A stretch of DNA of 64,000 nucleotides from Patescibacteria group bacterium (GTDB lineage: Bacteria > Patescibacteriota > Patescibacteriia > 2-12-FULL-57-11): NCBI GenBank assembly GCA_004297205.1, contig SCUL01000002.1, positions 77,156 to 141,155 of the forward strand. Direction: 5' to 3'. Position numbers and translations under genes: made by a program. How positions within the stretch are numbered: the stretch's first letter is position 1; each line of letters begins with the position of its first letter. Below, piece after piece: positions 3,461 to 41,181 of the stretch. A model generated the notes under the pieces. It did no database searches, was not told the origin of the DNA, and was given only the letters and a program-made list of their open reading frames with translations.

Positions 3461-3823
3461 TCAGGCGCTGATCTTCAACCGCTTCATGCGCGGCGCCCGC
3501 AGCCGGTTGTGGGGCAACATGTTCAAAACGGCTTTGCGCACGATTTCGGTCGGCTTCTTCTCCTTGAGGCGGCGGAACGGCGTCTCCTTGAGGCCGCCCT
3601 GGTAGCCGGTGTAGTGCTTGTAGACCTTCTTCTCTTCCTTCTTGCCGGTGACGACGATCTTGGCGGCGTTGACGATGACGATGCTGTCGCCGGCATCCAT
3701 GTGCGGGGCATAGCTCGGCTTGTGCTTGCCCATGAGAAGCGTGGCGACGCGCGTCGCCAGCCGGCCCAAAACCTGGCCGGACGCGTCGATGGTGTGCACG
3801 GTGCGGGTAATTTTCGGCTGCAT
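3461..3823 (-). CDS. rplM: 50S ribosomal protein L13
   Basis: TRTVHTIDASGQVLGRLATRVATLLMGKHKP...VVIVNAAKIVVTGKK is the L13 signature. Sits immediately upstream of rpsI. Confidence 0.95.
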   Translation of the reverse strand: MQPKITRTVHTIDASGQVLGRLATRVATLLMGKHKPSYAPHMDAGDSIVIVNAAKIVVTGKKEEKKVYKHYTGYQGGLKETPFRRLKEKKPTEIVRKAVLNMLPHNRLRAPRMKRLKISA

Positions 3824-5628: not shown

Positions 5629-6111
5629 TCAGATGCGGCGCGCGCCCGGCGGGCGGCAGCCGTTATGCGGGATCGGCGTCACGTCCTTGATGGTGGTGAC
5701 GGTCAAACCGTTGGCGTTCAGGGCGCGGATGGCGCCTTCGCGGCCGGCACCGATGCCCTTCACGAACACCGCGACCTCGCGCAGACCGACGTCCTTCAAC
5801 TTGTCGCAGACGTCCTTCACGGTGATGGAGGCGGCGTACGGTGTGGCCTTCTTCGGACCGGTGAAACCCATCTTCCCGGAGGACGACCAACCGAGCACGT
5901 TGCCGTGTGGGTCGGTCAGCGTGATGATCGTGTTGTTGTAGGTCGCCTGGACGTAGACGCGGCCGATCGGAACCGTGCGCACCGCTTTCTTCTTGCGGGC
6001 GCGGACGACGCCTTTCTTTCCGCCGGAGGCGAATCCGCCTTTGGCGGAGGCGCCGCCCTCATCGGCCTTCGCGTCGGCGGCGGGTGGAGTGATCACATCA
6101 AGCTCTTCCAT
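5629..6111 (-). CDS. rpsK: 30S ribosomal protein S11 with N-terminal extension containing the in-frame 33-nt palindromic element
   Basis: ...VPIGRVYVQATYNNTIITLTDPHGNVLGWSSSGKMGFTGPKKATPYAA is the S11 core. The extension holds EGGASAKGGFASGGKKG, encoded by the GGCGAATCCGCC element at 6018-6050. Confidence 0.95.
   Translation of the reverse strand: MEELDVITPPAADAKADEGGASAKGGFASGGKKGVVRARKKKAVRTVPIGRVYVQATYNNTIITLTDPHGNVLGWSSSGKMGFTGPKKATPYAASITVKDVCDKLKDVGLREVAVFVKGIGAGREGAIRALNANGLTVTTIKDVTPIPHNGCRPPGARRI
6018..6050. repeat. copy of the 33-nt GGCGGATCCGCC-core palindromic element inside the rpsK N-terminal extension
   Basis: CGCCGGAGGCGAATCCGCCTTTGGCGGAG is 32/33 identical to the mnmA copy. 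Confidence 0.75.
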
Positions 6112-9433: not shown

Positions 9434-10244
9434 AAGATTTGGCGCGGCTGTCCGCGCCGAGCGTCACCACGATCACCTCGCGGCCGTTCAACCGCGCCCG
9501 GACGGCAAGATTATACATCGACTCCTCCAGATAACCGGTTTTTCCGCCGGTGATATAGATGTCCGGGTCCACCACGAGCAGGCGGTTGGTGTTCTTGACC
9601 TCTTTGGCGACCGACGTGGGCGCGTAGGCCGTGAAGGTGTATTTCCCCGTGGTGGTGTAGCGGCGGATGTTGGGGTTGGCGAAGGCGTAGCGCGCCAGCC
9701 GGGCCAGGTCTCGCGCCGAGGAAACATTGCGCGCGTCCATGCCGGACGGGTCGTGGAAGACGGTATCCTTCATGCCGAGCGTGGCGGCGCGGATGTTCAT
9801 CTCGCGCAGAAAGACCTGGGGCGTCAGCCCCGAGGTGCGCATCAGGAGCATCGCCGTGTTATTGGTCGAGGCGATCATGGTGCTGGCAAAGGCGTCGCGC
9901 CACGTGAAGCGTGCACCCGCGTTCAGGCGCAGCCGCCCCCCGCCCACTTCGTCGGCCGAGGCGAGCGTGACCGCCCGGCTCCAGACGGGCTTCTGTTCGA
10001 GCGCGATGACCGCGGTCATCAGCTTGGTCAGCGAGGCGATGACGCGCGGATCGTCGGCGCGATGCTCGAAGAGCGCCTCGCCCGTGGCAGCGTCGATGAC
10101 GATGGCCGATTTCACGGTCAGCGTCTCCCGCAGGTACTTGGCGTACCCCGTTTTGAGGGCCGGCGCCGCGGGCGCGGCGGCCGCGACCTGCGGGAGAAGC
10201 ACGGAGATCCCAGCCAAAATGACTGCAGCGGTGCGATACCTCAT
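9378..10244 (-). CDS. D-alanyl-D-alanine carboxypeptidase (serine-type, S11 / PBP5-like, low molecular weight PBP)
   Basis: Signal peptide. SxxK (ASLTK), SxN (STNN) and KTG (GGKTGY) active-site triad motifs are present. True start is ATG 10244 (MRYRTAAVILAG); the track ORF is 5' extended. Confidence 0.85.
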   Translation of the reverse strand: MRYRTAAVILAGISVLLPQVAAAAPAAPALKTGYAKYLRETLTVKSAIVIDAATGEALFEHRADDPRVIASLTKLMTAVIALEQKPVWSRAVTLASADEVGGGRLRLNAGARFTWRDAFASTMIASTNNTAMLLMRTSGLTPQVFLREMNIRAATLGMKDTVFHDPSGMDARNVSSARDLARLARYAFANPNIRRYTTTGKYTFTAYAPTSVAKEVKNTNRLLVVDPDIYITGGKTGYLEESMYNLAVRARLNGREVIVVTLGADSRAKSFDETKSLAHWAFQNYVWQ

Positions 10245-16376: not shown

Positions 16377-16388
16377 CGAGCGACGCAA

Positions 16389-16418
16389 AACACCCCCGGT
16401 CGGGGGTGTTTTGTTTTT
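16389..16418. terminator. rho-independent terminator after pilA (also positioned for convergent mnmA)
   Basis: ACACCCCCGgtcGGGGGTGT stem plus TTTTGTTTTT. An A-run lies on the other side. Confidence 0.8.
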
Positions 16419-16434: not shown

Positions 16435-17556
16435 TCAGCCACCGATGACTCCCCCGCCCAGGCAGACGTCGCCGTCATAAAAGACGGCGGCCTGGCCGGA
16501 CGTGATGGCGCGCACCGGCGTCGAGAAGCGGACGCGCAACATGTCTCCCACCGCTGTGACTTCGGCGGCCACGATCTCCTGACGATGGCGGATGCGCACG
16601 CCAAGGCGTGCCGGCAGTGCCGGCGTCGCGGCAATCCAACGCGCGCCGCCGACCTGCATCTGATCGGAAAACAAGTCCTGCTCGTTCCGGGAGACGACCA
16701 CGCGACGTGACGCGGGGTCCGTCGCGACGACGTACCACGGCTCGCCGCCGCCTCCGCCGGAGGCGGATCCGCCTTTGGCGGAGATGCCGAGCCCGTGCCG
16801 CTGGCCGACGGTGAAGCGGTGGACGCCGCCGTGCCGCCCGAGCACCGCACTGTCCACGGAGACGATCTCGCCGGGCGCGTCGGGAATGCGCTGGCGCAGA
16901 AAATCCGGCAGCGCCACTTTGCCGACGAAGCAGATGCCCATCGACTCTTCCTTCTCGGCCGTCGGCAGACCACGGCGACGCGCTTCATCCCGGACCTGCG
17001 GCTTGGTGAGATGACCGATCGGAAACAGCGTCTGCGCCAGGAGCTTCTGCGGCAGACGGCACAAAAAATAGGTCTGATCTTTTTCCGCATCGGCAGCCTG
17101 AAGCAGCAGGCTCTCCCCTTCCGCACCTGCCCTGGAAGGGTGCCGCACCTGCGCGTAGTGTCCGGTGGCGATCCAGGCACACCCCTGGCGCTTCGCTTCC
17201 GCGGCCAGCGCCGGAAACTTCACGAATTCATTGCAACGCACGTCCGGATTCGGGGTGCGGCCGGCGGCATATTCGGCATACAGCGGCTCCACGACCGCGG
17301 CGCGGTAGACCTCTTCGGCATCGACCGTAACGAGCGGGATGCCGAGTTTGGCGGCCACGGCCAGCGCGTCACGCCGTTCGCTGCGCCAGGCGCAGGCGCC
17401 GCTCTCGTCCTTGGTGTCCGACCAGTTCTTCAAAAAACAACCGACCACGTCATTGCCCTGCTCGAGGAGCAACGCCGCTGCCAACGACGAATCCACCCCG
17501 CCGGACATGCCGACGAGGACGCGCCGTTCGCTGATGGGTCGCGTGGCCGTTTCCAT
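16435..17556 (-). CDS. mnmA: tRNA-specific 2-thiouridylase MnmA, with an in-frame Gly/Ser-rich insertion encoded by the 33-nt palindromic element
   Basis: PP-loop VLVGMSGGVDSS and catalytic Cys residues. The insertion ...[21 protein letters not shown]... is at 16751-16783. Start ATG 17556 (METATRPISERRVLVG). Confidence 0.9.
   Translation of the reverse strand: METATRPISERRVLVGMSGGVDSSLAAALLLEQGNDVVGCFLKNWSDTKDESGACAWRSERRDALAVAAKLGIPLVTVDAEEVYRAAVVEPLYAEYAAGRTPNPDVRCNEFVKFPALAAEAKRQGCAWIATGHYAQVRHPSRAGAEGESLLLQAADAEKDQTYFLCRLPQKLLAQTLFPIGHLTKPQVRDEARRRGLPTAEKEESMGICFVGKVALPDFLRQRIPDAPGEIVSVDSAVLGRHGGVHRFTVGQRHGLGISAKGGSASGGGGGEPWYVVATDPASRRVVVSRNEQDLFSDQMQVGGARWIAATPALPARLGVRIRHRQEIVAAEVTAVGDMLRVRFSTPVRAITSGQAAVFYDGDVCLGGGVIGG
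16751..16783. repeat. 33-nt GC-rich near-palindromic element CCTCCGCCGGAGGCGGATCCGCCTTTGGCGGAG, in-frame inside mnmA
   Basis: Near-identical copies lie at 6018-6050 (rpsK, one mismatch) and 39034-39065 (secA, inverted orientation). Confidence 0.8.
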
Positions 17557-18813: not shown

Positions 18814-20930
18814 GGCGATGCGGGTTGCGGCAGATCCTCGGCCGGCGTGGACGTGGCGCCGGTCAGCCGCTCGATGCGGGCCTGCAGTTCACGGTTGCCG
18901 GGCGCGAGCGCCGCGGCGGCCTCGTACCAACGCACCGCGTCGGCGGTGCTGCCGCGCTGCTCGAGGAGCTGGGCCAGCAGGAGGTAGGCGGACGGGTCGC
19001 CGCCGGCGGCGGAGGCGCTGGCCGCGATCTCTTCGGCCACGCGGACCGCCTCATCAATGCGGCCGGTCCGGGCCAGCAGCCCGGCGAGGCGGGCGCGGGC
19101 GATGAGCAGTGCCGGCGCGATGCGCACGGCGTCGCGATAGGCGGCTTCGGCGGCCGCGGTGTCCCCGCTCAGGTCGGCGAAGTCCCCGGCCGCGACGGCA
19201 AACGTCGGGTTGCTCGGTTCACGCACGCGGGCGGCGGCGATCCAACCGCTGAGTTCCGAAACGTCCGCGCCCGCGGCCGTCAGCTGCATGCCGACCGTGA
19301 TCGCCGCTTCCAAGGTGGCCGCGCTTTGCGTGCCGCTGACCGCGGCGCGGGTCCGTGCCAGCGCCGTTTCCAGCGTGGTCTTCAGGCCCGCTTCATCCGT
19401 CGCGCCGTCCGCGCGGAAGAGCGCCTGCAACGCGCCGATCGCCTGCCACTCCGGCGCCGCGTTCCAGCGCAGAAGGGCGGCATAGGCCTCATCCTGCGCG
19501 GCCGGATCGGTGGCCCGCAGCAAGCGTCCCGCGGCGTTCTGGGCTGCCGCCAACCAGACGGCAGCGGCCAGGAGGAGCACGGTCAGGGCCAGCAGGCCCG
19601 CCGTCAGCCAGCCGGCCAGGAGCGCCTGTCGGCCGCCGGTCTTGGCGGCGGATTCCGTGTCTCGCGCGACCAGCCAGCCGGCCAGGAGCGCCAGGGTCAG
19701 CAGGGCAGCTTGGGGCAGCAGAAGGATGCCTGCGGCAAAGGTCGCGGCTGCGGCGGCGGCAAAGACGCCGGCGGCCAGTGCCGCGCCGTCCGCATCCGGC
19801 GTGACGCGGCGGGCGAAGACGCGGCGGATGCCTTTGACCTGGGGCGGCGCGCCGATCAGTTTCCACCCGGCGGCAAACGACGCGCCGAGCGAGACGGCCA
19901 GCGCCAGCGTCCCGACCGGACCGAGTTCATACAGGAACTGCAACAGCGTCGAGGCCGGAACCGGAATGCGCACGTTCCAGAGCGCGGTCGTGTTCAACAA
20001 CTCGGGGCGGACGCGGGCGAAGGCCTCGGCGAAACCGCCGGGTCCGACGCCGGCGAAGGTCGCTGGCTCCTGCGTCCAGAGGCGCGCCAGGGCCGCGGCG
20101 GTTTCCGACTGACGGACGTTGATCTCCACCGGGAGATCGGCGACAAGCGGCGGTGGCAGGCGGACGAAGGACAGCACCAGGGCCGCGGCCGCCGCGACGA
20201 AAGCGGCCTGGGTGGTCGGCCGGTGGACCTGGTCGAAGCGCCGCACGACGTGGATGAGCAGCACGACCAGACCGACGAACAGGGCCGCCCAAGCGGCCGC
20301 GCGATCGGCGCGGACAAGCACGGCCAGATGCAGCAGGACGGCGACGAGCGCCACGGCGCGGGCCGGCACGGCGCGTCCGGCGGCCAGGGCGTACCCGAAG
20401 GCAAGCGGCATCGCGATGACGGAGAGCAGCGCCACGGCGGTCGGTGCCGCTGCAGCGAAGGCCGCGGGCACCGGCACGGCCGGCAGGAACGTCTTCAGCA
20501 GGAACAACGCTTGATGCGCCGTCAGGAGGCCAAGCACGACGGCCGGCAGCACGCTCCGTGCCCGGCCGGTGACGGCGGCGGCGACGAGGAAAGCGCCCGC
20601 AACGGCCAGCAGCAGCGTCGCGGAACCGGTCCACAGCGCCGCACTCCCCCAAAAGGCGCGGCCGGGATTTCCGCCCGCCGCGAGCGACACGAGCACGGCC
20701 AGGACGAAGACGCCGAGTCCGACCAGAAAGACGCGGTCCGGCCGCGGACGCAGCAGGGCCTCGCGCCCCGCGGTGCAGGCGGCAAGGACCAGCGCCAAAA
20801 CGAGCGCGGCGCGGGCGTCGCCGACCGGATCGGCCGCACCGGGCAGATACGCAAAAAGGGCCGCGGCAACGGCCAAAGCAACAAAGACGGCGGGCAGCGC
20901 TGCCCGCAGATCGGCAGGGGCGGTTTTCAT
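18810..20930 (-). CDS. polytopic membrane protein, O-antigen ligase-like (Wzy_C-type) with C-terminal TPR repeats
   Basis: About 12 TM helices. Loop motif ...STLLQFLYELGPVG... resembles the Wzy_C/O-antigen ligase signature. The last 200 aa are TPR-like Ala-rich repeats (AYRDAVRIAP..., AVRWYEAAAALAP...). Confidence 0.55.
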   Translation of the reverse strand: MKTAPADLRAALPAVFVALAVAAALFAYLPGAADPVGDARAALVLALVLAACTAGREALLRPRPDRVFLVGLGVFVLAVLVSLAAGGNPGRAFWGSAALWTGSATLLLAVAGAFLVAAAVTGRARSVLPAVVLGLLTAHQALFLLKTFLPAVPVPAAFAAAAPTAVALLSVIAMPLAFGYALAAGRAVPARAVALVAVLLHLAVLVRADRAAAWAALFVGLVVLLIHVVRRFDQVHRPTTQAAFVAAAAALVLSFVRLPPPLVADLPVEINVRQSETAAALARLWTQEPATFAGVGPGGFAEAFARVRPELLNTTALWNVRIPVPASTLLQFLYELGPVGTLALAVSLGASFAAGWKLIGAPPQVKGIRRVFARRVTPDADGAALAAGVFAAAAAATFAAGILLLPQAALLTLALLAGWLVARDTESAAKTGGRQALLAGWLTAGLLALTVLLLAAAVWLAAAQNAAGRLLRATDPAAQDEAYAALLRWNAAPEWQAIGALQALFRADGATDEAGLKTTLETALARTRAAVSGTQSAATLEAAITVGMQLTAAGADVSELSGWIAAARVREPSNPTFAVAAGDFADLSGDTAAAEAAYRDAVRIAPALLIARARLAGLLARTGRIDEAVRVAEEIAASASAAGGDPSAYLLLAQLLEQRGSTADAVRWYEAAAALAPGNRELQARIERLTGATSTPAEDLPQPASP

Positions 20931-27715: not shown

Positions 27716-28219
27716 ATGAAAAAATATCTGCCGATCTTGGCCGCGGTCCTGTTGCTCGGTGCGGGCTGCGCGTCTCCCGCAACTCCGTCCACGAACGCGC
27801 CGCGGGCGGCAGCCGATCCGGAGCCGCGGTGCGATGCCCTCTTGACCCTCGCTGAAGCGCAGCAGGTTTCCGGTCTTGCCTATGCCGTGCGTGATGCGAA
27901 AGCAACGACGATGGGCACAACCGTCGTGACCACCTGCACTTTTTACACCAACGAACGGACCACGGGCATCAAGCCCTTTACCATCCTGACGCGCTCCGCC
28001 GCATCGACTGTGGAAGTCAATGAAATCTTCGAAGCGAGCAAAACCGCCACCTATACCGATGGACAGCCGATCTCCGGCCTCGGCGACCAGGCGCTGTGGT
28101 CTCCGTCTTTCGGCCAGCTGTCGGTTCTGCGAGGTCAAACGTGGTTGATTGTGACTGCAACCAATAACCGGGTTCTTGCAACGAAGATCGCCGAGGCCCT
28201 CGCCCCGAAGCTCAAGTAA
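27716..28219 (+). CDS. lipoprotein, hypothetical (167 aa)
   Basis: MKKYLPILAAVLLLGAGC signal peptide with a canonical lipobox. TTGGCA-18-TACCAT promoter-like sequence at about 27659-27690. Confidence 0.7.
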   Translation: MKKYLPILAAVLLLGAGCASPATPSTNAPRAAADPEPRCDALLTLAEAQQVSGLAYAVRDAKATTMGTTVVTTCTFYTNERTTGIKPFTILTRSAASTVEVNEIFEASKTATYTDGQPISGLGDQALWSPSFGQLSVLRGQTWLIVTATNNRVLATKIAEALAPKLK

Positions 28220-28844
28220 GCGGCACGTCTCCCGCGACTTCTCCAAAAAAATCCTGGTGACGTGACTCGACGTGAGCCGCAAGTTCTTCGAGGTAGGCGA
28301 GCAGTTCTGGTTGACCGGCCATCTTGCTGCGCTTCAGGGCAAGCACCTCCTCGAACGCCAGTCCGTGTTTCTTCCAGATGCGACCGCCGTCCGCGGTCGT
28401 CGCAAGCATCGGTTCCAACTTGTCGAGCGCGTAAATGAAGCGGCTTTCCGGATCCTCGCGGCGCTCGTAGGCGGCAATGGCGTCGTGGAGGTCGGGAAAT
28501 TCTGAAAACTCCCTGCGCAGCCGTTCCGCCGCTGCGTGTTCACTCGCCGATTTCTCGGCCCGGGCCTTGGCGTCCTTCGTGTAGGCGAAAACGTCGCCGG
28601 CGTAAACCTCAACAAGGTCATGAATAAGCGCGTACCGCAACACCTTGTCCTGATCCAGCGGCAGCTTCAATGTCGAGACCGTATACCACGCCAACATGGC
28701 CAGTGAATAGCTGTGCTCGACGTCGTTTTCCAAACGCTCCTCGCCGATGATGAAAATCTCGCGGATCACGCGCCGGTAGGCGGTGAGCATCGCATAGAAT
28801 CGCTGGAGCTCGGGGAGGCCGGCCATACGTTCAGGATGTGACAT
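28212..28844 (-). CDS. HD-domain phosphohydrolase (YfbR-like 5'-deoxynucleotidase family)
   Basis: H...HD motif (...VEHSYSLAMLAWY...ALIHDLVEVYAGD...). The track ORF is 5' extended across the PPC gene. Start is Met at 28844, or 28826. Confidence 0.7.
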   Translation of the reverse strand: MSHPERMAGLPELQRFYAMLTAYRRVIREIFIIGEERLENDVEHSYSLAMLAWYTVSTLKLPLDQDKVLRYALIHDLVEVYAGDVFAYTKDAKARAEKSASEHAAAERLRREFSEFPDLHDAIAAYERREDPESRFIYALDKLEPMLATTADGGRIWKKHGLAFEEVLALKRSKMAGQPELLAYLEELAAHVESRHQDFFGEVAGDVPLT

Positions 28845-29235
28845 GGAATTCGGGAAAACCCGTTGCCTCGTCATGAATCCGACGATACACGACGTCGTCG
28901 AAGATGCCGAACACAACCTCGGCCGTGGTATCCACAACGCAGCCGTCCTTGAGGTGGCCGCCGATAACGGCACCGTCCTTGTCCGAAAGGCTGACGTGGA
29001 TGTGACAGCCGTCCGCGGCGATCGTTCCGGTTCCGGAAACGATTTCGAGCGGTCCCGCGATCGTACGGACGATTTGCGCGTCCGGCGTGGCGCCGGCCAT
29101 CCGCAAAACCGCCGTGCGCACCCCGCCGACCAGGGACAACAACACGCCCGCGCCGATCCTTCGTTCACGGGCGATGCGTTCGATCTCTTCCTTCAGCAGT
29201 TGTCCCGGCCGGAGCCGGAAGGAAATCTGTTTCAT
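28831..29235 (-). CDS. PPC domain protein (DUF296; PCC/AT-hook-associated fold)
   Basis: 134 aa with G-rich beta-strand pattern ...GAGVLLSLVGGVRTAVLR...GPLEIVSGTGTIA...HIHVSL... Its ATG overlaps the TGA of upstream DUF1653 (ATGA). Confidence 0.7.
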   Translation of the reverse strand: MKQISFRLRPGQLLKEEIERIARERRIGAGVLLSLVGGVRTAVLRMAGATPDAQIVRTIAGPLEIVSGTGTIAADGCHIHVSLSDKDGAVIGGHLKDGCVVDTTAEVVFGIFDDVVYRRIHDEATGFPEFHVTS

Positions 29236-29498
29236 ACCTCACGCACCCAGGCGAACCGCGGGCCTTTGTACTCCCCCACTTCGACGTGCTCGAGGAACAT
29301 GCCGAGCGGTCGGATCCAATACAGACCCGGATCGATCAACGACTAGTACACCACGAACTCCTGCGCCGGGTCCTCGCTGCTGCGCCCGACGAACCGCGCA
29401 TGATACACGCCGCCTTTGTAGTGGCGGTAGATGCCGGGGCGGAACCGTTGCGCGGCGTCGGAGAGCGGCGGGAGATCGGGGGACATGCCGATGCTCAT
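29232..29498 (-). pseudogene. DUF1653 family gene interrupted by an in-frame TAG (amber) at 29343-29345
   Basis: Frame from ATG 29498 reads MSIGMSPDLPPLSDAAQRFRPGIYRHYKGGVYHARFVGRSSEDPAQEFVVY*SLIDPGLYWIRPLGMFLEHVEVGEYKGPRFAWVREV*. Both halves match DUF1653 (YRHYKGG.Y ... Y..RPL.MFLE). Both ends are coupled to neighbours by ATGA overlaps. Confidence 0.6.
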
Positions 29499-30493
29499 CT
29501 CAGTGCATTAATCCTATCCCTGCTCATTTCTATCTGTTTTTCTCTTTCTTTCTCGTTTCTTTCCCAGATAGCAGACAATGTTTCCTTCACGTGACCGATG
29601 TTTTGACGCTGCACGACGTTACTGATCACGGAACCGGACGGATATTCAACAAAAACCGTCAAGGTATTGAACACCACCTGCCCGGATCTTGGGGTGAACA
29701 ATTGTTTATGAAGCTCGGGCGAACGCATGTGTACTCGTTCCTCAACCGACCGAAACGCGGCTTTCAGGTCTTCCTGATTCCCTAAAATGTCGAGGTGTTT
29801 CACGGCTTTGCCCGTCAATGCCGTCCCTGAAACCATCGGCAGAATACGGCGTTCAAGCGCCCAGTCAATTACCTCACCGGCATCATCGGCGTTGTCTTTG
29901 TACACCATGATGGAAACACCCATTCTCGTGAATCCGTTTTTATCCGGTTTGTTGAATCCGGCATCGATCATGGCACGTATCGCCTCATCTCTTTTTTCCG
30001 CATATTTCTTAACACCGGAGATTCTGTTCTCTTTTTCGGGGTCAAAACTATTCACTTTCACGACGAAGGAAACGGGATACTCCCTTAATTTTTCAATTGC
30101 GGTCGCATTCAATAGAGCGCCGTTCGTAAATACCGTGACATGCAGATCCAGCTCTCTGGCTTTTTCGAGAAGCGGCCAAATCTCTTTATTTGAAAAGGGC
30201 TCGCCGTGGCCCGCCAACAACAGATTCGTAATCCCGAGATTCTTTGCTTCCTCCAACAATTCAACGCTTTTTGCGACATCAACCGATTGTTGCGTCTTTT
30301 CTCTGTACGCATCGGTAAAACAATACACGCAGTTCAAATTACACTTCTCTCGTGGAAAGGAAATACTCAGCTGCAGGGGCCTATCGCGTTCCCAGGCTCG
30401 TTCAATGTCCTCGATGTCAAAATCAATTCCTTTCAGCTTGATGGGCTCGGGTTTCTCTACCTCCGGACTCGGAAAATATTCTCCAGATCTCAT
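29495..30493 (-). CDS. radical SAM protein (CxxxCxxC; function unknown)
   Basis: CNLNCVYCF cluster and GHGEPF glycine-rich SAM motif. 332 aa. No SPASM or twitch Cys cluster seen. Local GC is clearly lower than surrounding genes. Confidence 0.75.
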   Translation of the reverse strand: MRSGEYFPSPEVEKPEPIKLKGIDFDIEDIERAWERDRPLQLSISFPREKCNLNCVYCFTDAYREKTQQSVDVAKSVELLEEAKNLGITNLLLAGHGEPFSNKEIWPLLEKARELDLHVTVFTNGALLNATAIEKLREYPVSFVVKVNSFDPEKENRISGVKKYAEKRDEAIRAMIDAGFNKPDKNGFTRMGVSIMVYKDNADDAGEVIDWALERRILPMVSGTALTGKAVKHLDILGNQEDLKAAFRSVEERVHMRSPELHKQLFTPRSGQVVFNTLTVFVEYPSGSVISNVVQRQNIGHVKETLSAIWERNEKEREKQIEMSRDRINALR

Positions 30494-30518
30494 ATGCCAT
30501 CATCTTACACTACGAGTT

Positions 30519-31445
30519 TCATACCGGAATCTTTACCTTGGCAAGCTGCGACTCACGGATCGACAGGCCGAGGAACAACGCGAGCAGCAGGACGGTGTTG
30601 AGCGGCGCGACCCAGAAGCCGAACTCGCGTCCGAAACTTTCCAGCACCATCAGGCCGCCAAGCATGCCGATGGAATACATGGCGCCGTTCTTGAGATAGG
30701 CGAACTTGGAAATGACATCGATGCCGCGCACCGTCACCTCGCGGACGACGAGCGCGCCGATGCCGTTGCCGATCAGGATGAGCACCACGGACAGCGTGAA
30801 GGCGAAGGCGCCGATCACGCCGTCGATGGAGAACGACGCGTCGAGCACTTCGAGGTACAGCAGTTTGCTCCAGGCGCTCAGATGCGCGGTGTGCAGTTTC
30901 TTCTCCGTCTCCTCGGCGTTGCGCCGGAAACCGTCGGTCACGAAGAAGGCCGTGGCGCCGATGGAGGCGGACAGCGCCAGGATGGGATTCTCGCGCACCG
31001 CCAGGGCGATGACCTTGGTGATGAAAATCGAGGCGAAGGCGTAGAACCAGACGCTCTGGCGGTGGATGAAGTGCTCGACAAAGAAGGCGTACTTCTTCTC
31101 CTCCATGAACAGCCAGCCGAGAAAAACGAAGACGAGGTAGACGCCGCCGGCCAGCAGCAACAACGGCTTGGAATGCTCAAGCGCCGCACTGACCTTGTCC
31201 GGTTCCGTGAACACCAGACGCATCAGCTCCGGCAGCGGGATGTTGGTATTGGCAAGCCAGACAATGAGGAACGGCAGCACGCCGCGCACCACGAACACGG
31301 CCAAGAGCAGCCCCCAGAACAGGAAAAACTTCCGGTACTTCTCCGGCAGGGTCTTCAGGACGTGGGCGTTGACGATGGCGTTGTCGACCGAGCTGATGAC
31401 CTCGAAGACGACCAGCCCGAAGATGACGACGAGGGATTGCAGCAT
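30519..31445 (-). CDS. DUF475 family integral membrane protein
   Basis: MLQSLVVIFGLVVFEVISSVDNAIV... N-terminus and ...SFSIDGVIGAFAFT... are typical of DUF475. About 8 TM helices. Confidence 0.65.
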   Translation of the reverse strand: MLQSLVVIFGLVVFEVISSVDNAIVNAHVLKTLPEKYRKFFLFWGLLLAVFVVRGVLPFLIVWLANTNIPLPELMRLVFTEPDKVSAALEHSKPLLLLAGGVYLVFVFLGWLFMEEKKYAFFVEHFIHRQSVWFYAFASIFITKVIALAVRENPILALSASIGATAFFVTDGFRRNAEETEKKLHTAHLSAWSKLLYLEVLDASFSIDGVIGAFAFTLSVVLILIGNGIGALVVREVTVRGIDVISKFAYLKNGAMYSIGMLGGLMVLESFGREFGFWVAPLNTVLLLALFLGLSIRESQLAKVKIPV

Positions 31446-31446
31446 A

Positions 31447-32022
31447 TCAGCCTTGTGCCTTCAGGATCTCGTCGAGCAGCACCGGCAGCTCGGTCACGCC
31501 ATCGTCCCCTGAGAAATGCCCCATCTCTTCGAGGATGATCGTTTTGGCACCGAGCTTATTACGCATCGCGACTTCGTTCTCCAACGGCACGTAGCGGTCG
31601 TTGTCGGAAAAAATCGCCTCGATCCGGCCTGCGGCGCGTTTTGCACGCTCGGTGTCGAGCGGCGTCCGCAACCACTCCGCGGCGATCGGCCGTTCTTCAT
31701 CGCTGTCCGCATTCGTCAGGTGGTTGAGGAACCCCGCCACGAGATAGGCGCCGCCGACGCGTTGATCGTCCGAAAGGTCGGCGAGGTACCGCAAGATTGC
31801 CTGACAGCCCATGCTGTGCCCGACCAAGATTGTCTCCTCGTCCGCCGTGCCGACAACGGTCGCAAGAAACGGCACCCAGGTGCCGATGCGCGGCGTGTCG
31901 GTCTCCGGCATCTCCGGTGCTTCCACGGCGAACCCGCGGGATTCGAGTTCCCGCTTCAACCACGGGAACCAGCCATGCTCAGGTGTTCCGCTCCAGCCGT
32001 GGATCAGGAAAGCGCGTTTCAT
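31447..32022 (-). CDS. alpha/beta hydrolase, RBBP9/YdeN-like serine hydrolase family
   Basis: About 190 aa, MKRAFLIHGWSGTPEHGWFPWL... with a GHSMG nucleophile motif, matching the family. Confidence 0.75.
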   Translation of the reverse strand: MKRAFLIHGWSGTPEHGWFPWLKRELESRGFAVEAPEMPETDTPRIGTWVPFLATVVGTADEETILVGHSMGCQAILRYLADLSDDQRVGGAYLVAGFLNHLTNADSDEERPIAAEWLRTPLDTERAKRAAGRIEAIFSDNDRYVPLENEVAMRNKLGAKTIILEEMGHFSGDDGVTELPVLLDEILKAQG

Positions 32023-32052
32023 ATGGCTTTCAGAATGACAGAAACGCGGAAA

Positions 32053-32081
32053 GAAAAAAAGACGCGTGCCTCCTGCACGCG
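32053..32081 (-). terminator. rho-independent terminator ending the SET/ASCH/HD operon
   Basis: On the minus strand: CGCGTGCAGGAGGCACGCG hairpin followed by TCTTTTTTTCTTT. Confidence 0.55.
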
Positions 32082-32124
32082 CGACGCCCGCCCGGCGACG
32101 GTCAGCGGCGCTGCGGAGCGCCCC

Positions 32125-32355
32125 TCACCTCTGGCGCAGGCGGTGCGACGTCTGCAGCTTCACGGAGCGTTTCGTCGACGGCGGAAGCCGCACCCGTTTC
32201 TCCGGTAGGTCGGTCTCGCACCGCGTGACCCGCTCGCGTGCCAGCTTCTTGCGCGCCCGCTGCGCCGCCAACGAACCGACGACGAAATCACGAACGTTCA
32301 TCTTCACCTCTTCTCTAAAACTAGCACACGGACGCGTGCCGTCAACACGATGCAA
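32125..32355 (-). CDS. small basic hypothetical protein (possible; may instead be 3' UTR)
   Basis: 76-aa ORF (plausible start MNVRDF...) between the SET gene and the terminator. No RBS or homology. Confidence 0.25.
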   Translation of the reverse strand: MHRVDGTRPCASFREEVKMNVRDFVVGSLAAQRARKKLARERVTRCETDLPEKRVRLPPSTKRSVKLQTSHRLRQR

Positions 32356-32378
32356 TACGGCGACGCCTGCCAGCCCCG

Positions 32379-32756
32379 TCAGGGCCTCCCCTGTTCGAAC
32401 TCTCCATAATCTTGCAGGAGCTCCTCTCCGGCCTCGATGTCTCTGACGGCGACAAGCCGATACTCGGGCGCACCGGCGTCAACCGTGATGTTCCCGACGT
32501 CCGCATGGTTGCAGAAGCGGATGTCATCGAACGCTAGATGCCAGGTGCCATCGTTGAAGTATCCGTAATGACGGATCTGTTTCTGGGAAAAAACATCCAG
32601 CTTCTGGAAATCGGCATCGGAAATATCAACGTCCAAATTCGAACTCATTTTGTACACCAACGAACCCTTGGCGACGCGTTGATCGGCAAAAAGACCGATG
32701 CCGTGTACGGGACTTTTCTCCAGTCGTGTTTTGACGAAAAGCATATGAGAGATCAC
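32379..32756 (-). CDS. SET domain protein (putative protein-lysine methyltransferase), 125 aa
   Basis: GIGLFA...KGSLV N-terminal SET motif. ...RFCNHADVGNITV... (the NHSCxPN equivalent). ...VAVRDIEAGEELLQDYGE... is post-SET-like. ATG overlaps the ASCH TGA. Confidence 0.65.
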   Translation of the reverse strand: MISHMLFVKTRLEKSPVHGIGLFADQRVAKGSLVYKMSSNLDVDISDADFQKLDVFSQKQIRHYGYFNDGTWHLAFDDIRFCNHADVGNITVDAGAPEYRLVAVRDIEAGEELLQDYGEFEQGRP

Positions 32757-33082
32757 GGCCCCCGCAACTCGAAGGTGATCATCTTCACGGGCGTGTCCAA
32801 CGTCACCCGGTCGCCGTAATACTTCTTGTATGCCTCGAACATCTTTTTGCTGCTTTCAAACCGCTCATGCCCGACAAAATCCGCATCCGTGATCCCGCCG
32901 AGGCGCTTCTCCTTGATGGCCGTGATACGCGCCGACGCAAACTCTTCTCCGGTGGACTTATTCACAAGCGAAAGCTCATCGCCGACACGGAGATCCTTGT
33001 CATCAAACATCCGCCAGGTGGATTTCTTCTCACCAGACAGCACCAACGGCACGAGATGGTCGAACAACTTGAGGGTCTTCAT
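32753..33082 (-). CDS. ASCH domain protein (PUA-like fold), 109 aa
   Basis: MKTLKLFDHLVPLVLSGEKKSTWR... is the typical ASCH N-terminus. ATG 33082 overlaps the HD gene TGA (ATGA). Confidence 0.7.
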   Translation of the reverse strand: MKTLKLFDHLVPLVLSGEKKSTWRMFDDKDLRVGDELSLVNKSTGEEFASARITAIKEKRLGGITDADFVGHERFESSKKMFEAYKKYYGDRVTLDTPVKMITFELRGP

Positions 33083-33699
33083 TCTTTTTTCCAGGCGCGC
33101 GTTTCCTGCGCGCGGTCGACGAACCATTGGTCGGAGGCGTCGAACCACCAGGCATCCGGGTGCGTGGCGAGCATCCGCTCCCCCAGTTTCCTGCCGGCGT
33201 CGGTCTTCAGCCGTTTCACGGCAATGGCGATCCACTCGGTGGCTTTGATGTTCCCTTTCACCTCCTCGGCGCGCAGTGTGGCGATCCACTCCAGGTTGTC
33301 GGCATCCTTGACGATCTTCGCTTCCAGGGTCTCCTTGGCCTGTTCTTCCGTGTACAGGTCGGCGATCTCCTTCCCAAAGGGAACGCTCGCCGCAATGTCG
33401 GCGACGGCGTGCCCTTCGGCAAGGCGACCGTACCGCTGATGGATGTAGTTCAGGTCCGACGTCCTGCCTTCGCCCAAGTCATGCACGAGCGCCATGAGCA
33501 CGACCTTGTTCTTGTCGACGCGCGGCTCGAGGTGGCACAGCGCGTAGGCGATGAGCGCCGTGTGGAAGAGGTGCTCGGCCACCGACTGGCTGCCGCTGCC
33601 CAAAAACCACAACCCCGAGCGCGGCGTCTTGCTGTGGATGCTCGTTTCGTACACGAAGTTCGTGATCTGATCAAGCGGGTCTTTTTTTGCGTCAGGCAT
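33079..33699 (-). CDS. HD-domain phosphohydrolase (YfbR-like 5'-nucleotidase family)
   Basis: ...AEHLFHTALIAYAL...LMALVHDLGEGRTSD... carries the H..HD..D motifs. 206 aa. Confidence 0.75.
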   Translation of the reverse strand: MPDAKKDPLDQITNFVYETSIHSKTPRSGLWFLGSGSQSVAEHLFHTALIAYALCHLEPRVDKNKVVLMALVHDLGEGRTSDLNYIHQRYGRLAEGHAVADIAASVPFGKEIADLYTEEQAKETLEAKIVKDADNLEWIATLRAEEVKGNIKATEWIAIAVKRLKTDAGRKLGERMLATHPDAWWFDASDQWFVDRAQETRAWKKE

Positions 33700-33736
33700 A
33701 AATCATTTGTCATTCTGAGGGGCAGCGAAGAATCCT

Positions 33737-34411
33737 TCAAGCTGGATCCTGGAAGTGCTGCTGCCTCTTTCCCATATCGAGCGCCCAGATCTCTTTTTGC
33801 TCGCGGTAAATCACGTACAACAAACCGACGAATGCCGCGCCCAGCGTATACGGCAGGGCGAACACGAGGTTCGTTTTTCCAAAGGCGATCAGCAGCGTAT
33901 TGATCAGGATGAACAGCAGGCGGACTTCGGTCGGACCGATGCCGAGATGCGAGATGCGGAATTTGTTCGTCGCGGCCATCACCAAATAGGCGTTGACCAT
34001 GTAGCCGGCAAAGAGCGCGAACACGAAAAAGAAGACCCACTTGGATTTGTCGGGCAACAGGATCATGTACCCCACCATCAACGCGGCCAGAAAAAAGTAA
34101 TCGAGCAGGTGGTCCATGTAGTAGCCCCAGCGGACGAGTCCGGTCTTGCGCAGGCGGCCGACCGCGCCGTCCAAAGAGTCGGTCAGCCACTGCAGGGCGA
34201 TCATCGCCGACATGCCCCACAGCCAGCGGATGTCGTCCACCGCCAAAAAGCTGAAAAGCACGAGCAGTCCGCAAATCGGGATGGTCGCGAGCGTCAGGTG
34301 GTACGTTTCGACGGGCTTGGGAACTTTCGTCACCGCCCATTCCACAAAACGCCGCTCCAATGGATGCAGCAGCGACGCGCCTACTTTCTTATCTCCGGAA
34401 AAAGTTTCCAT
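33737..34411 (-). CDS. CDP-alcohol phosphatidyltransferase family protein
   Basis: D-G-x2-A-R-x8-G-x3-D-x3-D motif (DSLDGAVGRLRKTGLVRWGYYMDHLLD). 5-6 TM helices. Confidence 0.8.
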   Translation of the reverse strand: METFSGDKKVGASLLHPLERRFVEWAVTKVPKPVETYHLTLATIPICGLLVLFSFLAVDDIRWLWGMSAMIALQWLTDSLDGAVGRLRKTGLVRWGYYMDHLLDYFFLAALMVGYMILLPDKSKWVFFFVFALFAGYMVNAYLVMAATNKFRISHLGIGPTEVRLLFILINTLLIAFGKTNLVFALPYTLGAAFVGLLYVIYREQKEIWALDMGKRQQHFQDPA

Positions 34412-34417
34412 TGGTCG

Positions 34418-34804
34418 TTACGACAACCCCTTCTCCCGGTATTCCTTCTTGATCTGCCAATACATGCTCTCCGTGCCCGGCTCCTCCGTCCGGTTGCGCA
34501 TCAGCTCCGCCGGATACTTCTTGGCCACGTGCGCCAGCTTTTCACGAACGATCTGTTCGGTGTCGAGATTCAGCAGCACGGACATCTCCAATGCGTAGAT
34601 CAGCACGTCAGCAAGCTCTTTTTTGATCTGCTGCACCTTCTCCGGATTCTTGCGCACGTCTTCGAGCGACAGGTTTTCCCACTGGAACAATTCCAACAAC
34701 TCCGCGCCTTCGATCATGATCGACTTGGCGATATCAACCGGACGCAGGGTGTCCCAACGTCGGTCCTTGAGGTGTTGATAAACGTCTTTCTCGAGGTCCT
34801 TCAT
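34418..34804 (-). CDS. MazG-like nucleotide pyrophosphohydrolase (all-alpha NTP-PPase)
   Basis: EExxE-type metal motifs (EGAELLELF; ELADVLIYALE). 128 aa. Confidence 0.75.
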   Translation of the reverse strand: MKDLEKDVYQHLKDRRWDTLRPVDIAKSIMIEGAELLELFQWENLSLEDVRKNPEKVQQIKKELADVLIYALEMSVLLNLDTEQIVREKLAHVAKKYPAELMRNRTEEPGTESMYWQIKKEYREKGLS

Positions 34805-34962
34805 ACGGGATTCAGGGTGCCACCACGGGGTCTTGACAGCAAGCTGGTTCTATGACAGGCGCAGGCCGGGTGATTCAATACACCTGCTCGCGGGAGGGTT
34901 GGCATCCTTCCGGCTCCCATCGGGGCTACCATACCCTCTTTGGGCGACCGAGCGTACCCGCC

Positions 34963-35029
34963 ACCCGTCGGATTCAGACGCTGTGTTCACGCATTGCGTC
35001 TGATGCAGCTCCGACGGGTTCTTTTATTT
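34963..35029 (+). terminator. nested-hairpin rho-independent terminator on the + strand (also abutting the stop of the convergent 35024 gene)
   Basis: Outer stem ACCCGTCGG...CCGACGGGT and inner stem TCAGACGC...GCGTCTGA, followed by TCTTTTATTTCC. There is no + strand CDS upstream. Confidence 0.45.
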
Positions 35030-35605
35030 CCGCAGCTCGCGGTCGAATGCAAGAAAGTCCTTAAGGATTTCCGCGGTGGGTTTCTCCGCATCGAGGACTT
35101 TGGACTTCAAACCGTACCCCGTGGCGCAGCGGTTGAACTCGGCTTCGTACTTTGCGATGTAGTCGTCGAGGATGGCGCGGCGCTCCTCCGGCGTGGCTCC
35201 GTCCGGAAACAGCGCACGGTCGCGCTTGTGCTGGTCGGCTTCGATGCGGCGCAGCACGGTGTCCGTCGAAATACGCAGCAGCAAGATGGCGTCGAATCCG
35301 GCGATGCCGCTTCCGGCGATGGGAAAGACGTCACCGCGGACGATGTTGAGGTAATGGCCGTCGAATACAACGTCACCCGGGCGAGAGGTGATGTTCGTCA
35401 GCATTTCCTGAAACTTCCGGTCCGCATCGTCATTGTGGCTCAGTTTACGCAACGCGTCGTAATCACCGGGGATACCGAGGTAGTCCATGAAGGCGTGCGA
35501 CCCCTTGATGATTTCGAAACCAGGTGCCGCTTCTTTGATCGCATGCAGTAACGTCGTCTTCCCCGCCCCGTTGATGCCGCCGAGGTAGTACTTCATCATT
35601 GTCAT
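35024..35605 (-). CDS. P-loop NTPase / nucleotide-kinase-like protein
   Basis: Walker A GGINGAGKTT and lid-like R-rich segment. 193 aa. ATG overlaps the ppa stop. Confidence 0.6.
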   Translation of the reverse strand: MTMMKYYLGGINGAGKTTLLHAIKEAAPGFEIIKGSHAFMDYLGIPGDYDALRKLSHNDDADRKFQEMLTNITSRPGDVVFDGHYLNIVRGDVFPIAGSGIAGFDAILLLRISTDTVLRRIEADQHKRDRALFPDGATPEERRAILDDYIAKYEAEFNRCATGYGLKSKVLDAEKPTAEILKDFLAFDRELRK

Positions 35606-36060: not shown

Positions 36061-36061
36061 G
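36032..36061. repeat. direct repeat copy A (covers the ppa start codon): CCGCGCTCGTTTTCGATGAAAACCTTCATG
   Basis: 28/30 identical to copy B at 37267-37296. Confidence 0.6.

Positions 36062-38382: not shown

Positions 38383-41181
<2,799 letters not shown>

Follow-up and report, generated by a model that had tools for sequence, protein, structure and literature searches.

A 30-nt double-hairpin DNA element in frame within housekeeping genes of uncultivated bacteria: a probable family of very small mobile elements

Rickettsia palindromic elements (RPEs) span about 100-150 bp, are found in one genus and comprise several unrelated families; they reportedly lie in frame within functional, often essential, genes. 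The SDRs of heterocystous cyanobacteria are said to be hairpin repeats of 21-27 nt whose pattern among close relatives is that of insertions, and they are reportedly associated with heptamer tandem repeats; we know of no transposase for SDRs and, to our knowledge, they have not been described as in-frame double hairpins of housekeeping genes across phyla. Some REPs are located inside ORFs, and both REPs and REPINs are mobilised by RAYT (HUH Y1) transposases (PMC3116915, PMC3733652, PMC6006769). The mitochondrial GC clusters (yeast GC42), the Allomyces double-hairpin elements and the repetitive hairpin elements of sponges are GC-rich sequences of 30-80 nt in AT-rich genomes (PMC4478555, PMC2800124); the Allomyces elements consist of two hairpins without a flanking duplication, and an RNA route has been proposed for them (PMC2800124).

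The original prediction for the 64-kb stretch of DNA analysed here (the window) placed a 33-nt element at three sites, in mnmA, rpsK and secA. A search for this 33-mer with up to 3 mismatches recovered exactly three sites in the window, at 16751-16783 (+ strand, 0 mismatches), 6017-6049 (+ strand, 3 mismatches) and 39033-39065 (- strand, 1 mismatch), and matches in 0 of 100 dinucleotide-preserving shuffles; the predicted coordinates were exact for mnmA and off by one for the other two. The unit common to the three sites is a 30-nt core (Table 1) with the consensus TCCGCC-NNN-GGCGGA-TCCGCC-NNN-GGCGGA, and the palindrome described for it, GGCGGATCCGCC, is indeed perfect. The rpsK copy, for which one mismatch had been reported, differs from the 33-mer at three positions, of which one (GGCGGA to GGCGAA) falls in the element proper and the other two are flanking changes of CC to TT. 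The secA copy is, as proposed, reversed: it is the reverse complement of the mnmA copy and opposite in orientation to the other two, the strand orientation of the element being set by the two 3-nt loops only. A covariance model derived from 148 copies found outside the window scored only these three copies, at 38-54 bits, with the next hit at 10 bits. All three host ORFs are on the minus strand and belong to the Pfam families S11, MnmA and SecA; the MnmA protein is identical to a database protein encoded on an 855,898-bp contig of a Patescibacteria MAG. The peptides encoded in frame are rich in Gly, Ser and Ala in either orientation, and those of S11, MnmA and SecA agree with the ones originally given.

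Table 1. Copies of the 30-nt element in the window and the genes that contain them
Feature	Coordinates	Strand	Sequence (+ strand)	Protein segment	Remarks	Covariance model score
Copy 1	6019..6048		TCCGCC GGA GGCGAA TCCGCC TTT GGCGGA	SAKGGFASGG, S11 residues 22-31	one stem mismatch	38-40 bits
Copy 2	16753..16782		TCCGCC GGA GGCGGA TCCGCC TTT GGCGGA	decapeptide, MnmA residues 259-268	perfect	50-52 bits
Copy 3	39034..39063		TCCGCC AAA GGCGGA TCCGCC TCC GGCGGA	decapeptide, SecA residues 707-716	perfect	50-54 bits
rpsK	5629..6111	-		160 aa; Pfam S11 domain, residues 50-159	ribosomal protein S11
mnmA	16435..17556	-		373 aa; Pfam MnmA	tRNA 2-thiouridine synthase
secA	38383..41181	-		932 aa from MSLLTKIF	ORF extendable to 41244

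The element is composed of two abutting 15-nt hairpins with no spacer between them; in each, a GC-rich stem of 6 bp carries a loop of 3 nt. Loop 1 is usually NRA and loop 2 TYN, so that the duplex has dyad symmetry, and frame 0 on either strand reads S-A-x-G-G-S-A-x-G-G. In the S+S elements each 15-nt half repeats the other in inverted orientation, which gives terminal inverted repeats, while the halves of S+P elements are not identical. A lox- or FRT-like site (13-14-bp arms, 8-bp spacer) was rejected because the S+P variants break the symmetry of the arms but keep each half-hairpin. Single 15-nt units are also present in the loci.

Altogether 240 tandem perfect 6-3-6 double hairpins were detected in 1.7 Mb, all of them members of this 30-nt family, compared with none in shuffled sequences. 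A general excess of hairpins in the window was considered and rejected: perfect single 6-3-6 hairpins number 36 versus 25 in shuffles, and the effect is specific to this sequence. Compensatory changes in the variants keep every hairpin perfect, although, given that the copies were ascertained by an exact pattern, this stem conservation is in part a matter of construction. In a metagenome scan whose pattern allowed any base at the 3' member of three stem pairs, 86% of the cells were paired, versus 64% in shuffles (0 of 500 reaching 86%) and 36-66% in slid controls; the pair types at the free positions include C-G, A-U and U-A. Some copies, that of rpsK among them, contain uncompensated single mismatches, which we read as decay; with respect to the gene, such mismatched copies are found in both strand orientations. 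A sense-strand RNA hairpin was rejected: single C to T changes that leave a G.U pair are found on the coding strand (S11 and one other locus) and on the non-coding strand (a third locus), so there is no strand rule. The proposed folding of the element as RNA yields stable structures, with -20 to -31 kcal/mol for 46-nt windows and z of about -4 in three of four folds, the rpsK copy being weaker (z = -1.25). No Rfam family reached its gathering score in the window, where the region 16700-16840 gave only miRNA and snoRNA noise (E 0.3-8), and none overlapped the non-ORF copies in 18 loci.

Comparison with orthologs bears out the view of a spreading repeat that is accommodated in permissive loops. 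Two MnmA orthologs (79-83% identity) lack exactly the 30 nt of copy 2, their empty site reading GGC RTC/GGC GGS GGY, where the slash, here and below, marks the point at which the element is inserted; altogether, none of the 18 aligned MnmA orthologs carries the insert. SecA contains exactly 10 extra residues relative to its homologs, an insert carried by none of the 13 aligned sequences. The peptide is thus missing from the orthologs of MnmA and SecA rather than shared with distant ones, and in AlphaFold models both inserts are located in low-pLDDT coil. The S11 insert belongs to an N-terminal extension outside the Pfam domain and is missing from relatives as well; since full-length representatives reach no more than 54% identity and a single partial match 61%, this absence is consistent with insertion but is not a clean empty-site comparison. 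In AtpD, where the insertion point follows the residues VDVRF and the empty site reads CGT TTC/GAC, three different filled alleles occupy one site, and about 103 of 120 sequences are without the element. At this shared site the element diverges far less than the neighbouring synonymous positions; the same-site alleles could descend from one old insertion followed by precise losses, instead of repeated insertion. Against the empty sites of MnmA, SecA and AtpD the insert amounts to exactly 30 nt or 10 residues, and the flanks of the mnmA copy (ATC/.../GGC) and of the AtpD copies (TTC/.../GAC or AAC) contain no target-site duplication. The flank consensus on both sides is T (59%) T (81%) T or C (82%), and the insertion point is a pyrimidine/purine step, T-T-Y/R-A-A in AT-rich genomes.

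Insertions of this kind, which the original prediction considered rare, turned out to be widespread across uncultivated bacterial phyla, with the 30-mer present at 120 or more genome loci, all in MAGs, versus about 0.01 matches expected by chance for 24 specified bases in 596 Gb. Among the matches listed, 64 are from CPR/Patescibacteria and the others from Omnitrophota, PVC, Ignavibacteria and further groups, with more than 12 phylum-level labels; some of the contigs involved extend to about 1.6 Mb, long-read contigs included, and they come from many laboratories and assemblers. Given that the same nucleotides recur in loci with GC contents from 30 to 70%, the sequence is not simply a common codon pattern.

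Most of the copies (104 of 126, about 80%) are located in ORFs of at least 100 aa, where the three frames are represented 81/10/13 (78% in frame 0; chi-square p=6e-21); a further set gave 48/14/16. The host proteins belong to at least 180 Pfam families (182 among the matches listed), mostly housekeeping, and have nothing in common, nor do the insertion sites: GyrA, PGK, L3, AspRS and helicases contain the element at different sites in different organisms. Three proteins of Ignavibacteria, only 40-55% identical, share its position. Identical loop pairs were found in 12 of 25 within-genome pairs of copies, versus 5.2% of between-genome pairs (permutation p<2e-4). Furthermore, an S+S copy is nested inside loop 2 of a P+S copy (locus L026), one DnaJ gene has three copies in its linker, heterodimers such as S+P1 recur with a constant order of partners, and in a Kiritimatiellae MAG the element is found at one end of a repeat of about 195 nt. 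Tandem arrays, mostly of period 7, adjoin 22 of 227 copies, compared with 3.9% of random positions. Interruption of a tRNA-Ser anticodon loop by the nested L026 copy was rejected, since its removal in silico restores no tRNA and leaves a tRNA-like fragment. Given that only three IMG/VR viral contigs contain the 30-mer and that it was not found among PLSDB plasmids, no vector is evident; the one hit among GenBank phages, to an archaeal virus (86% across 29 nt), is at the level of chance.

The 30-mers probably represent a family of very small, non-autonomous, hairpin-defined DNA elements, mobile or recently mobile, that have been filtered by selection into tolerated loops. A trans-acting activity that recognises structure would copy the element in the form of a folded single strand; the most likely candidate appears to be a single-strand transposase of the HUH/Y1 type (IS200/IS605 or RAYT), with a replication-fork process as the alternative. 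Given its length of 30 nt and the lack of stop codons, any insertion would keep the reading frame; selection would then retain mainly frame-0 insertions, which add a flexible Ser/Ala/Gly decapeptide, from either strand, to tolerant loops and linkers, and this would account for the survivors in mnmA, rpsK, secA and other essential genes. With its recurrence in hundreds of genes and many unrelated uncultivated phyla, the family appears to rank among the smallest and most widely distributed mobile elements of bacteria. A more far-reaching version, plausible but held only tentatively, is that in CPR/Patescibacteria, Omnitrophota, PVC, Ignavibacteria and other uncultivated phyla the family is moving at present via shared putative hairpin-recognising machinery, inserting at Y/R steps without target duplication and continually writing Ser/Ala/Gly (or Pro/Ala/Gly/Trp) decapeptides into essential proteins. 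The roughly 50 ORFs of the window, which covers 7.5% of the 856-kb contig, include no transposase, HUH protein (neither RAYT (Y1 HUH) nor TnpA (Y1_Tnp)), recombinase or reverse transcriptase, and the 8-kb loci revealed no autonomous parent whose ends match. As for the mobiliser, the dyad symmetry and zero spacer misfit the asymmetric ends of IS200/IS605. For a purely selfish element, the near-identity of the 30-mer from phylum to phylum is difficult to account for, unless the phyla have the moving machinery in common or pass DNA to one another.

A structure of precisely two 15-nt halves, inverted, directly joined and free of a target duplication, would also be produced if these genes had received and later lost a larger transposon or cassette that terminated in 15-nt hairpins and left its termini joined, with only in-frame scars surviving in essential genes. 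The lone 15-nt units and the Kiritimatiellae copy at the end of a longer repeat fit such a footprint, but we consider this origin improbable because separated half-element pairs around cargo were not found in 240 loci, S+P1-type heterodimers recur in the same partner order and copies within a genome have the loops of both halves in common; the nested copy and the DnaJ triplet, too, are explained more simply if the 30-mer itself moves. An RNA intermediate, whereby host transcripts containing the double hairpin are reverse-transcribed and the cDNA is patched into new sites, is modelled on the Allomyces mitochondrial elements (PMC2800124) and would be compatible with the absence of target duplication, the location of most copies in transcribed ORFs and the stability of the RNA fold. 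This route seems very unlikely, however, when set against the base-exact boundaries at the feet of the hairpins, which suggest structure-specific cleavage and not random cDNA ends, the dyad symmetry, which belongs to the duplex or to both strands, and the lack of a reverse transcriptase in the window.

Covariation in the stems, the low divergence of the element at the AtpD site compared with adjacent synonymous positions and the common position in the three Ignavibacteria proteins could alternatively reflect a host function, with purifying selection keeping the element in place either as a flexible linker peptide or as a double hairpin of the mRNA or DNA that might, for example, pause translation, direct RNase processing or bind a protein. 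Nearly all close orthologs nevertheless do without it in MnmA, SecA and AtpD, its hosts and sites are unrelated, copies with uncompensated mismatches are found in both orientations to the gene, no Rfam family matches, and exact-pattern ascertainment inflates the apparent conservation; a host function is accordingly an unlikely explanation. That there is no element at all, only convergent Gly/Ser/Ala codon usage, local template switching that gives rise to palindromes or an artefact of the assembly or library, is highly improbable and has effectively been refuted by the counts already: GGC, GGA, GCC and TCC are common codons in a genome of 64% GC, and every hit is metagenome-assembled, but shuffles of the window yield no match, the loci exceed the chance expectation by far, identical nucleotides occur in loci of 30-40% GC, loops vary while stems covary, the insertion is exact relative to orthologs, and the hits come from many laboratories and assemblers, with long-read contigs exceeding 1.6 Mb among them.

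If the 30-mers are mobile, as we consider probable, the size limit of a self-propagating bacterial DNA element would be lowered to two 15-nt hairpins, and, should the active-mobility version be true, no smaller mobile DNA would be known that bacterial phyla have in common, and the element would mark inter-phylum DNA traffic. Essential conserved proteins of bacteria with reduced genomes (SecA, S11, MnmA, AtpD, GyrA, DnaJ, aminoacyl-tRNA synthetases) would be routinely remodelled by selfish DNA. The near-identical sequence in otherwise dissimilar phyla raises the question of which machinery or DNA exchange links CPR, Omnitrophota, PVC and Ignavibacteria. In practical terms, the inserts are recognisable as 10-residue indels that can introduce errors into marker-protein alignments and phylogenies; in metagenomes, their presence or absence could be used as a marker at strain level.

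Among described repeats, REPs and REPINs share with the element a short GC-rich hairpin unit (20-40 nt in REPs, 15 nt here), the inverted doublet, dyad-symmetric flanks and loops, and a non-autonomous nature. However, REPs carry a GTAG or CGTC tag at one end, where the 30-nt element has a TTY flank and no such tag; they are mainly extragenic, whereas most copies of the element are intra-ORF; their families are specific to a species or genus; and REPINs have a spacer between the units that is lacking here. The terminal inverted repeats of the S+S elements are a feature of MITEs, but the target-site duplication of MITEs is absent from the mnmA and atpD flanks, and inspection of the 8-kb loci revealed no half-sites set apart by cargo. 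Hairpins at both ends and no target duplication are shared with IS200/IS605-derived elements, which do not require terminal inverted repeats. Those elements insert 3' of a specific tetra- or pentanucleotide and have left and right ends that differ; the 30-nt element has a TTY/ preference on both strands, symmetric ends and hairpins that abut the cleavage points without a spacer. The association with tandem arrays, mostly of period 7, may resemble that reported for SDRs, which are not known outside cyanobacteria and are apparently unrelated in sequence. Mitochondrial hairpin elements likewise combine conserved stems with variable loops and are occasionally located in coding or rRNA genes, but they are organellar, mostly intergenic, unrelated in sequence and without same-sequence sharing across distant lineages, and GC42 duplicates an AG target. 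PARCELs also consist of dyad-symmetric coding DNA with a patchy distribution in unrelated microbes that suggests horizontal spread, but they form tandem arrays of 25-residue amphipathic units in ORFs without known function, often encoding membrane proteins, unlike the solitary inserts of 10 residues that we describe for ribosomal proteins and enzymes.

In the literature the core string was matched by nothing but primers for BamHI cloning, and searches on palindromic in-frame repeats, CPR and hairpin repeats found no description of this 30-nt element. The original prediction likened it to RPEs, and this comparison holds insofar as both are palindromic repeats in frame in often essential genes, where they add a peptide and are read as tolerated selfish DNA; in-frame insertion at permissive sites is indeed the rule here, with 81 of 104 copies in frame 0. 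The element is distinct from RPEs: the insert is exactly 30 nt instead of 100-150 bp, consists of two minimal hairpins that encode the same type of peptide on both strands, and occurs in many phyla, not in Rickettsia. The element fits no described family that we found, and in function it resembles RPEs.

A search of the window with the 33-nt sequence of the original prediction recovered three matches, listed in the table together with other features of the window, and none in 100 dinucleotide-preserving shuffles. The three copies and the reversed orientation of the one in secA were borne out, whereas the single mismatch claimed for the rpsK copy was not, with three being found in the 33-mer. 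The sequence common to all three copies is 30 nt long (TCCGCC-NNN-GGCGGA-TCCGCC-NNN-GGCGGA) and consists of two abutting 15-nt units, each a 6-bp stem with a 3-nt loop; the loop pair is identical in all three. When the 64 kb were scored with a covariance model trained on 148 copies from elsewhere, these copies alone scored high (38-54 bits), the next-best match reaching 10 bits. In frame 0, both strands encode S-A-x-G-G-S-A-x-G-G, the Gly/Ser/Ala-rich peptide expected in either orientation, and RNA folding of 46-nt windows around the copies yields stable hairpins (-20 to -31 kcal/mol; z about -4 in three of four folds, -1.25 for the rpsK copy), the minimum-energy fold being a single long hairpin that spans the entire palindrome.

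Coordinates of the element copies and of other features in the window
Feature	Position	Context	Residues	33-mer match
Element copy	6019-6048	rpsK, gene on minus strand	S11 22-31	6017-6049, 3 mismatches
Element copy	16753-16782	mnmA, gene on minus strand	MnmA 259-268	16751-16783, 0 mismatches
Element copy	39034-39063	secA, gene on minus strand	SecA 707-716	39033-39065, 1 mismatch, opposite strand
Hairpin, 12-bp stem (caaaacaccccc GGTC gggggtgttttg)	16386-16413	between pilin-like gene and mnmA; A- and T-runs flanking
Segment of lower GC	28000-40000	GC 0.58 vs 0.63-0.68 elsewhere
Perfect palindromes of 16-18 nt	3742-3759, 10005-10020, 20890-20907, 44611-44626, 46057-46072, 47190-47205, 48956-48973	mostly GC-rich, mostly within ORFs

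The seven perfect palindromes compare with about 1.2 expected from codon shuffles. The segment of lower GC, which encodes two HD-domain phosphohydrolases, a NUDIX protein, an inorganic pyrophosphatase, an AAA_33 kinase and several large ORFs without Pfam matches, could represent acquired DNA or an island for nucleotide salvage; the 12-bp-stem hairpin in the table looks like a bidirectional intrinsic terminator.

The proposal that the copies are insertions at permissive positions was upheld by ortholog alignment for MnmA and SecA. The window's MnmA has an identical counterpart in the database, from a Patescibacteria MAG contig of 855,898 bp, and, in an alignment of 19 sequences, the 10-residue insert between GLGI and GGGEPWYV is present only in the window's protein. 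The empty site reads GGC GTC|GGC GGC GGT in an ortholog with 83% identity and GGC ATC|GGC GGG GGC in one with 79%, and the window has GGC ATC[30 nt]GGC GGC GGC; the mnmA copy is an exact 30-nt insertion without flank duplication. In each of the 13 SecA homologs aligned (51-59% identity), precisely the 10 residues after FHT are missing. In S11, the insert is part of a variable N-terminal extension rich in Lys/Glu, ahead of the Pfam domain (from residue 50 on), and the motif is found in none of the S11 representatives; because the closest full-length one is 54% identical, this case is consistent with insertion but not clean. AlphaFold models both the MnmA and the SecA inserts as coil: residues 263-270, within the MnmA insert and between two strands, are the sole internal stretch with pLDDT below 50 (mean 89.5), and in the SecA C-terminal fragment pLDDT drops below 50 at 182-185 and 187-194, covering the insert (fragment residues 180-189) between two helices. 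Two database relatives of MnmA (P0010 and P0003, the latter encoded at L122:225-1349; L-numbers denote loci of about 8 kb carrying or compared for the element) carry another in-frame insert, of 18 nt (RAQLGS), which is located 9 nt downstream of the insertion site in the window and contains a 6-3-6 hairpin (CCGAGC-GCA-GCTCGG); this loop could be a hot spot for small hairpin insertions in general.

The search of other genomes suggested in the original prediction, an exact scan with TCCGCCNNNGGCGRATCCGCCNNNGGCGGA of one genome per GTDB species, matched at least 120 loci, compared with about 0.01 matches expected by chance for 24 specified bases in 596 Gb; the counts from this and the metagenome scan (see below) are lower bounds. 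Among the matches listed, all 120 records are MAGs and, by the taxon labels in the record titles, 64 loci belong to CPR/Patescibacteria lineages, 10 to Omnitrophota, 11 to PVC (Kiritimatiellae, Lentisphaerae, Planctomycetes, Verrucomicrobiota), 5 to Ignavibacteria/Bacteroidota, 11 to 'Gammaproteobacteria', 8 to other phyla (Margulisbacteria, Firestonebacteria, Auribacterota, Chloroflexota, Desulfotomaculaceae, others) and 11 are unclassified. Several non-CPR matches are on very long contigs (Ignavibacteria, 1.63 and 1.65 Mb; Omnitrophota, 287 kb; Desulfotomaculaceae, 123 kb), and therefore mis-binning cannot account for the spread. The 24 stem bases are constant across loci of 30 to 70% GC, which rules out codon usage as the explanation and, with it, the low-complexity codon pattern named as the alternative in the original prediction. 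In IMG/VR the element is all but missing (3 contigs), and it was not found in PLSDB plasmids or, apart from one chance match, in GenBank phages; no Rfam family matches it, and the literature library that was searched contains no description of it. In the Kiritimatiellae MAG JAQUMN (L005:4587 and 6408, L051:7325), the element is at one end of a ~195-nt repeat that occurs three times (97-98% identical), and may also travel as part of a larger unit.

A mismatch-tolerant scan of the loci recovered diverged copies with changes in complementary pairs (e.g., TCAGCC..GGCTGA with CCAGCC..GGCTGG, or CTCGCC..GGCGAG with TGCGCC..GGCGCA). As a test, metagenomes were scanned with unit 1 and the inner 3 bp of unit 2 fixed, position 16 non-T, and positions 17, 18 and 28-30 unconstrained. 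Among the 128 matches listed, pair 16-30 is C-G in 106 and pair 17-29 in 109, and pair 18-28 is C-G in 61, A-T in 52 and T-A in 4; on distinct rows, 86% of the free stem cells are paired vs 63.8% in shuffles (none of 500 as high), with a covariation score of 0.442 vs 0.136 and 36-66% paired cells in slid controls. As second unit, CCAGCC..GGCTGG (P-A-x-G-W), CCCGCC..GGCGGG (P-A-x-G-G), CCTGCC..GGCAGG and CTCGCC..GGCGAG recur; in such heterodimers each 15-mer is palindromic and the whole 30-mer is not, and the replacement of S by P together with G by W makes sense only as complementary DNA changes. The 1.7 Mb of loci plus the window contain 240 tandem perfect 6-3-6 double hairpins (shuffles, none), 236 with a GCC/GGC inner core and 4 in which the core is varied with compensation, the loop rule (see below) mostly still being obeyed; because exact patterns served to find the copies outside the window, the conservation of the stems is in part built in, and only the three free stem pairs of the metagenome scan and the flanking 8-kb sequence are unbiased. 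Single uncompensated mismatches occur in some copies, including that in rpsK, and the strand compatible with wobble pairing is sometimes the coding one and sometimes not.

Altogether 104 of 126 copies lie inside an open frame of at least 100 codons (the longest open frame, a call that is weak at high-GC loci), and the suspected preference for in-frame positions is pronounced: 81, 10 and 13 are in frames 0, 1 and 2 (chi-square p=6e-21), and 48, 14 and 16 in a second, independently ascertained set. The insert peptides are presumably translated. The 125 host ORFs map to 182 Pfam families and include GyrA (3), Mur ligases (3), DEAD-box helicases, SecA, class II aminoacyl-tRNA synthetases, PGK, ATP synthase, Ddl and ribosomal protein L3. 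DnaJ is the commonest host overall (6 loci); that of L205:139-1281 has three S+P1 copies (SAxGGPAxGW; S, the TCCGCC..GGCGGA unit; P-type units begin with a Pro codon) within its Gly/Phe-rich (G/F) linker. Among asymmetric S+P1 elements read in frame 0 at the metagenome loci (L126-L245), the order SAxGG-PAxGW outnumbers PAxGW-SAxGG 25 to 4 (binomial p=1e-4); with S+P2 elements the two orders are equally frequent (9 vs 9). Homologous hosts in different organisms usually have different insertion sites (GyrA in three organisms, PGK, L3, AspRS, a RecG-like helicase, glycosyltransferases). One GyrA site has an S+S element in L088, is empty in L195, and in L196:4718-7303 contains a 36-nt quasi-palindromic insert of unrelated sequence (LPAARGAPAQAG, centre GAGCTC).

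Conservation beyond the 30 nt extends, symmetrically, over only 3 nt per side, with T (59%), T (81%) and T/C (82%) in the 5' flank and the complement 3' of the element; in the GC-rich window, all six flanks (three copies, both strands) have a pyrimidine before and a purine after the element. No target duplication was found in any case examined. The loops obey a rule valid on both strands and for non-ORF copies: NRA in the first (A at position 3 in 113 of 121), TYN in the second (T at position 1 in 114 of 121). Tandem repeats, mostly of period 7, adjoin 22 of 227 copies vs 3.9% of random positions. Period-7 tandem repeats often adjoin non-ORF copies (L016, L034, L036, L061, L062, L105, L191, L194, L235), and L163:1-250 is a period-13 array containing three copies, with insertion at the TT|AA repeat junction.

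At the AtpD site after VDVRF, three organisms have three different hairpin-perfect variants (TCCGCC/TCCGCC in L096, CCCGCC/TCCGCC in L183, CCCGCC/TCGGCC in L246), and the site is empty in an 89%-identical ortholog (L247) and in about 103 of the 120 closest homologs, which points to either a hot spot with repeated insertion or an old insertion with precise losses. Because the Phe codon TTY before the element is present in the empty-site homologs too, TT is part of the target and not of the element. In other lineages (about 13 of 120 homologs) this site has a 7-residue insert, DPSTxSGQ, the DNA of which in L248:3001-4392 combines a CTTCGAC direct duplication with a GGGCAGG-TGAG-CCTGCCC hairpin. 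The loop pair is shared by 12 of 25 within-genome pairs of copies vs 5.2% between genomes (permutation p<2e-4). In L026, an S+S copy is nested in loop 2 of a P+S copy, directly after TTG, in keeping with the target preference. This double copy (L026:7381-7483) lies within a tRNA-Ser-like 5' fragment, at the would-be anticodon, and a complete type II tRNA is located 270 nt downstream; interruption of a tRNA was rejected, as removal of the nested copy does not restore one.

These data show a family of precise, duplication-free, structure-constrained insertions that have propagated within genomes and are present in many phyla. Since the variants that occur as families are all hairpin-competent, what moves is probably a single strand in folded form, recognised by its shape. 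Enzymes known to work in this way without a target duplication are the HUH/Y1 transposases of IS200/IS605 and the RAYTs, which are thought to mobilise REP/REPINs (PMC6006769, PMC3116915). Because no such enzyme (HUH/Y1, RAYT) is encoded in the window and the element ends are symmetric, we offer this mechanism as a hypothesis. Insertions into genes would survive thanks to the 30-nt length, a sequence free of stops and a frame-0 peptide that is benign on either strand, and selection would explain the frame bias and the loop positions. That the copies are instead excision footprints appears improbable, and we give equally little credence to a hairpin or linker beneficial to the host; retro-insertion, which has been proposed for the Allomyces double-hairpin elements (PMC2800124), seems slightly less probable still.

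Compared with known systems, the element resembles Rickettsia RPEs in function, as originally suggested, but differs from them in size and lineage and is not a member of that family. Cyanobacterial small dispersed repeats, reportedly of similar size and likewise associated with heptamer tandem repeats, would resemble it in both respects. The element also resembles a REPIN cut down to two hairpins, spacerless and with a TTY tag; it shares the architecture of REP/REPINs but not their GTAG/CGTC tag and extragenic location (PMC3733652). With PARCELs, it has in common only the dyad-symmetric coding idea (PMC2996958), and its design is like that of mitochondrial GC clusters and double-hairpin elements (PMC4478555, PMC2800124).
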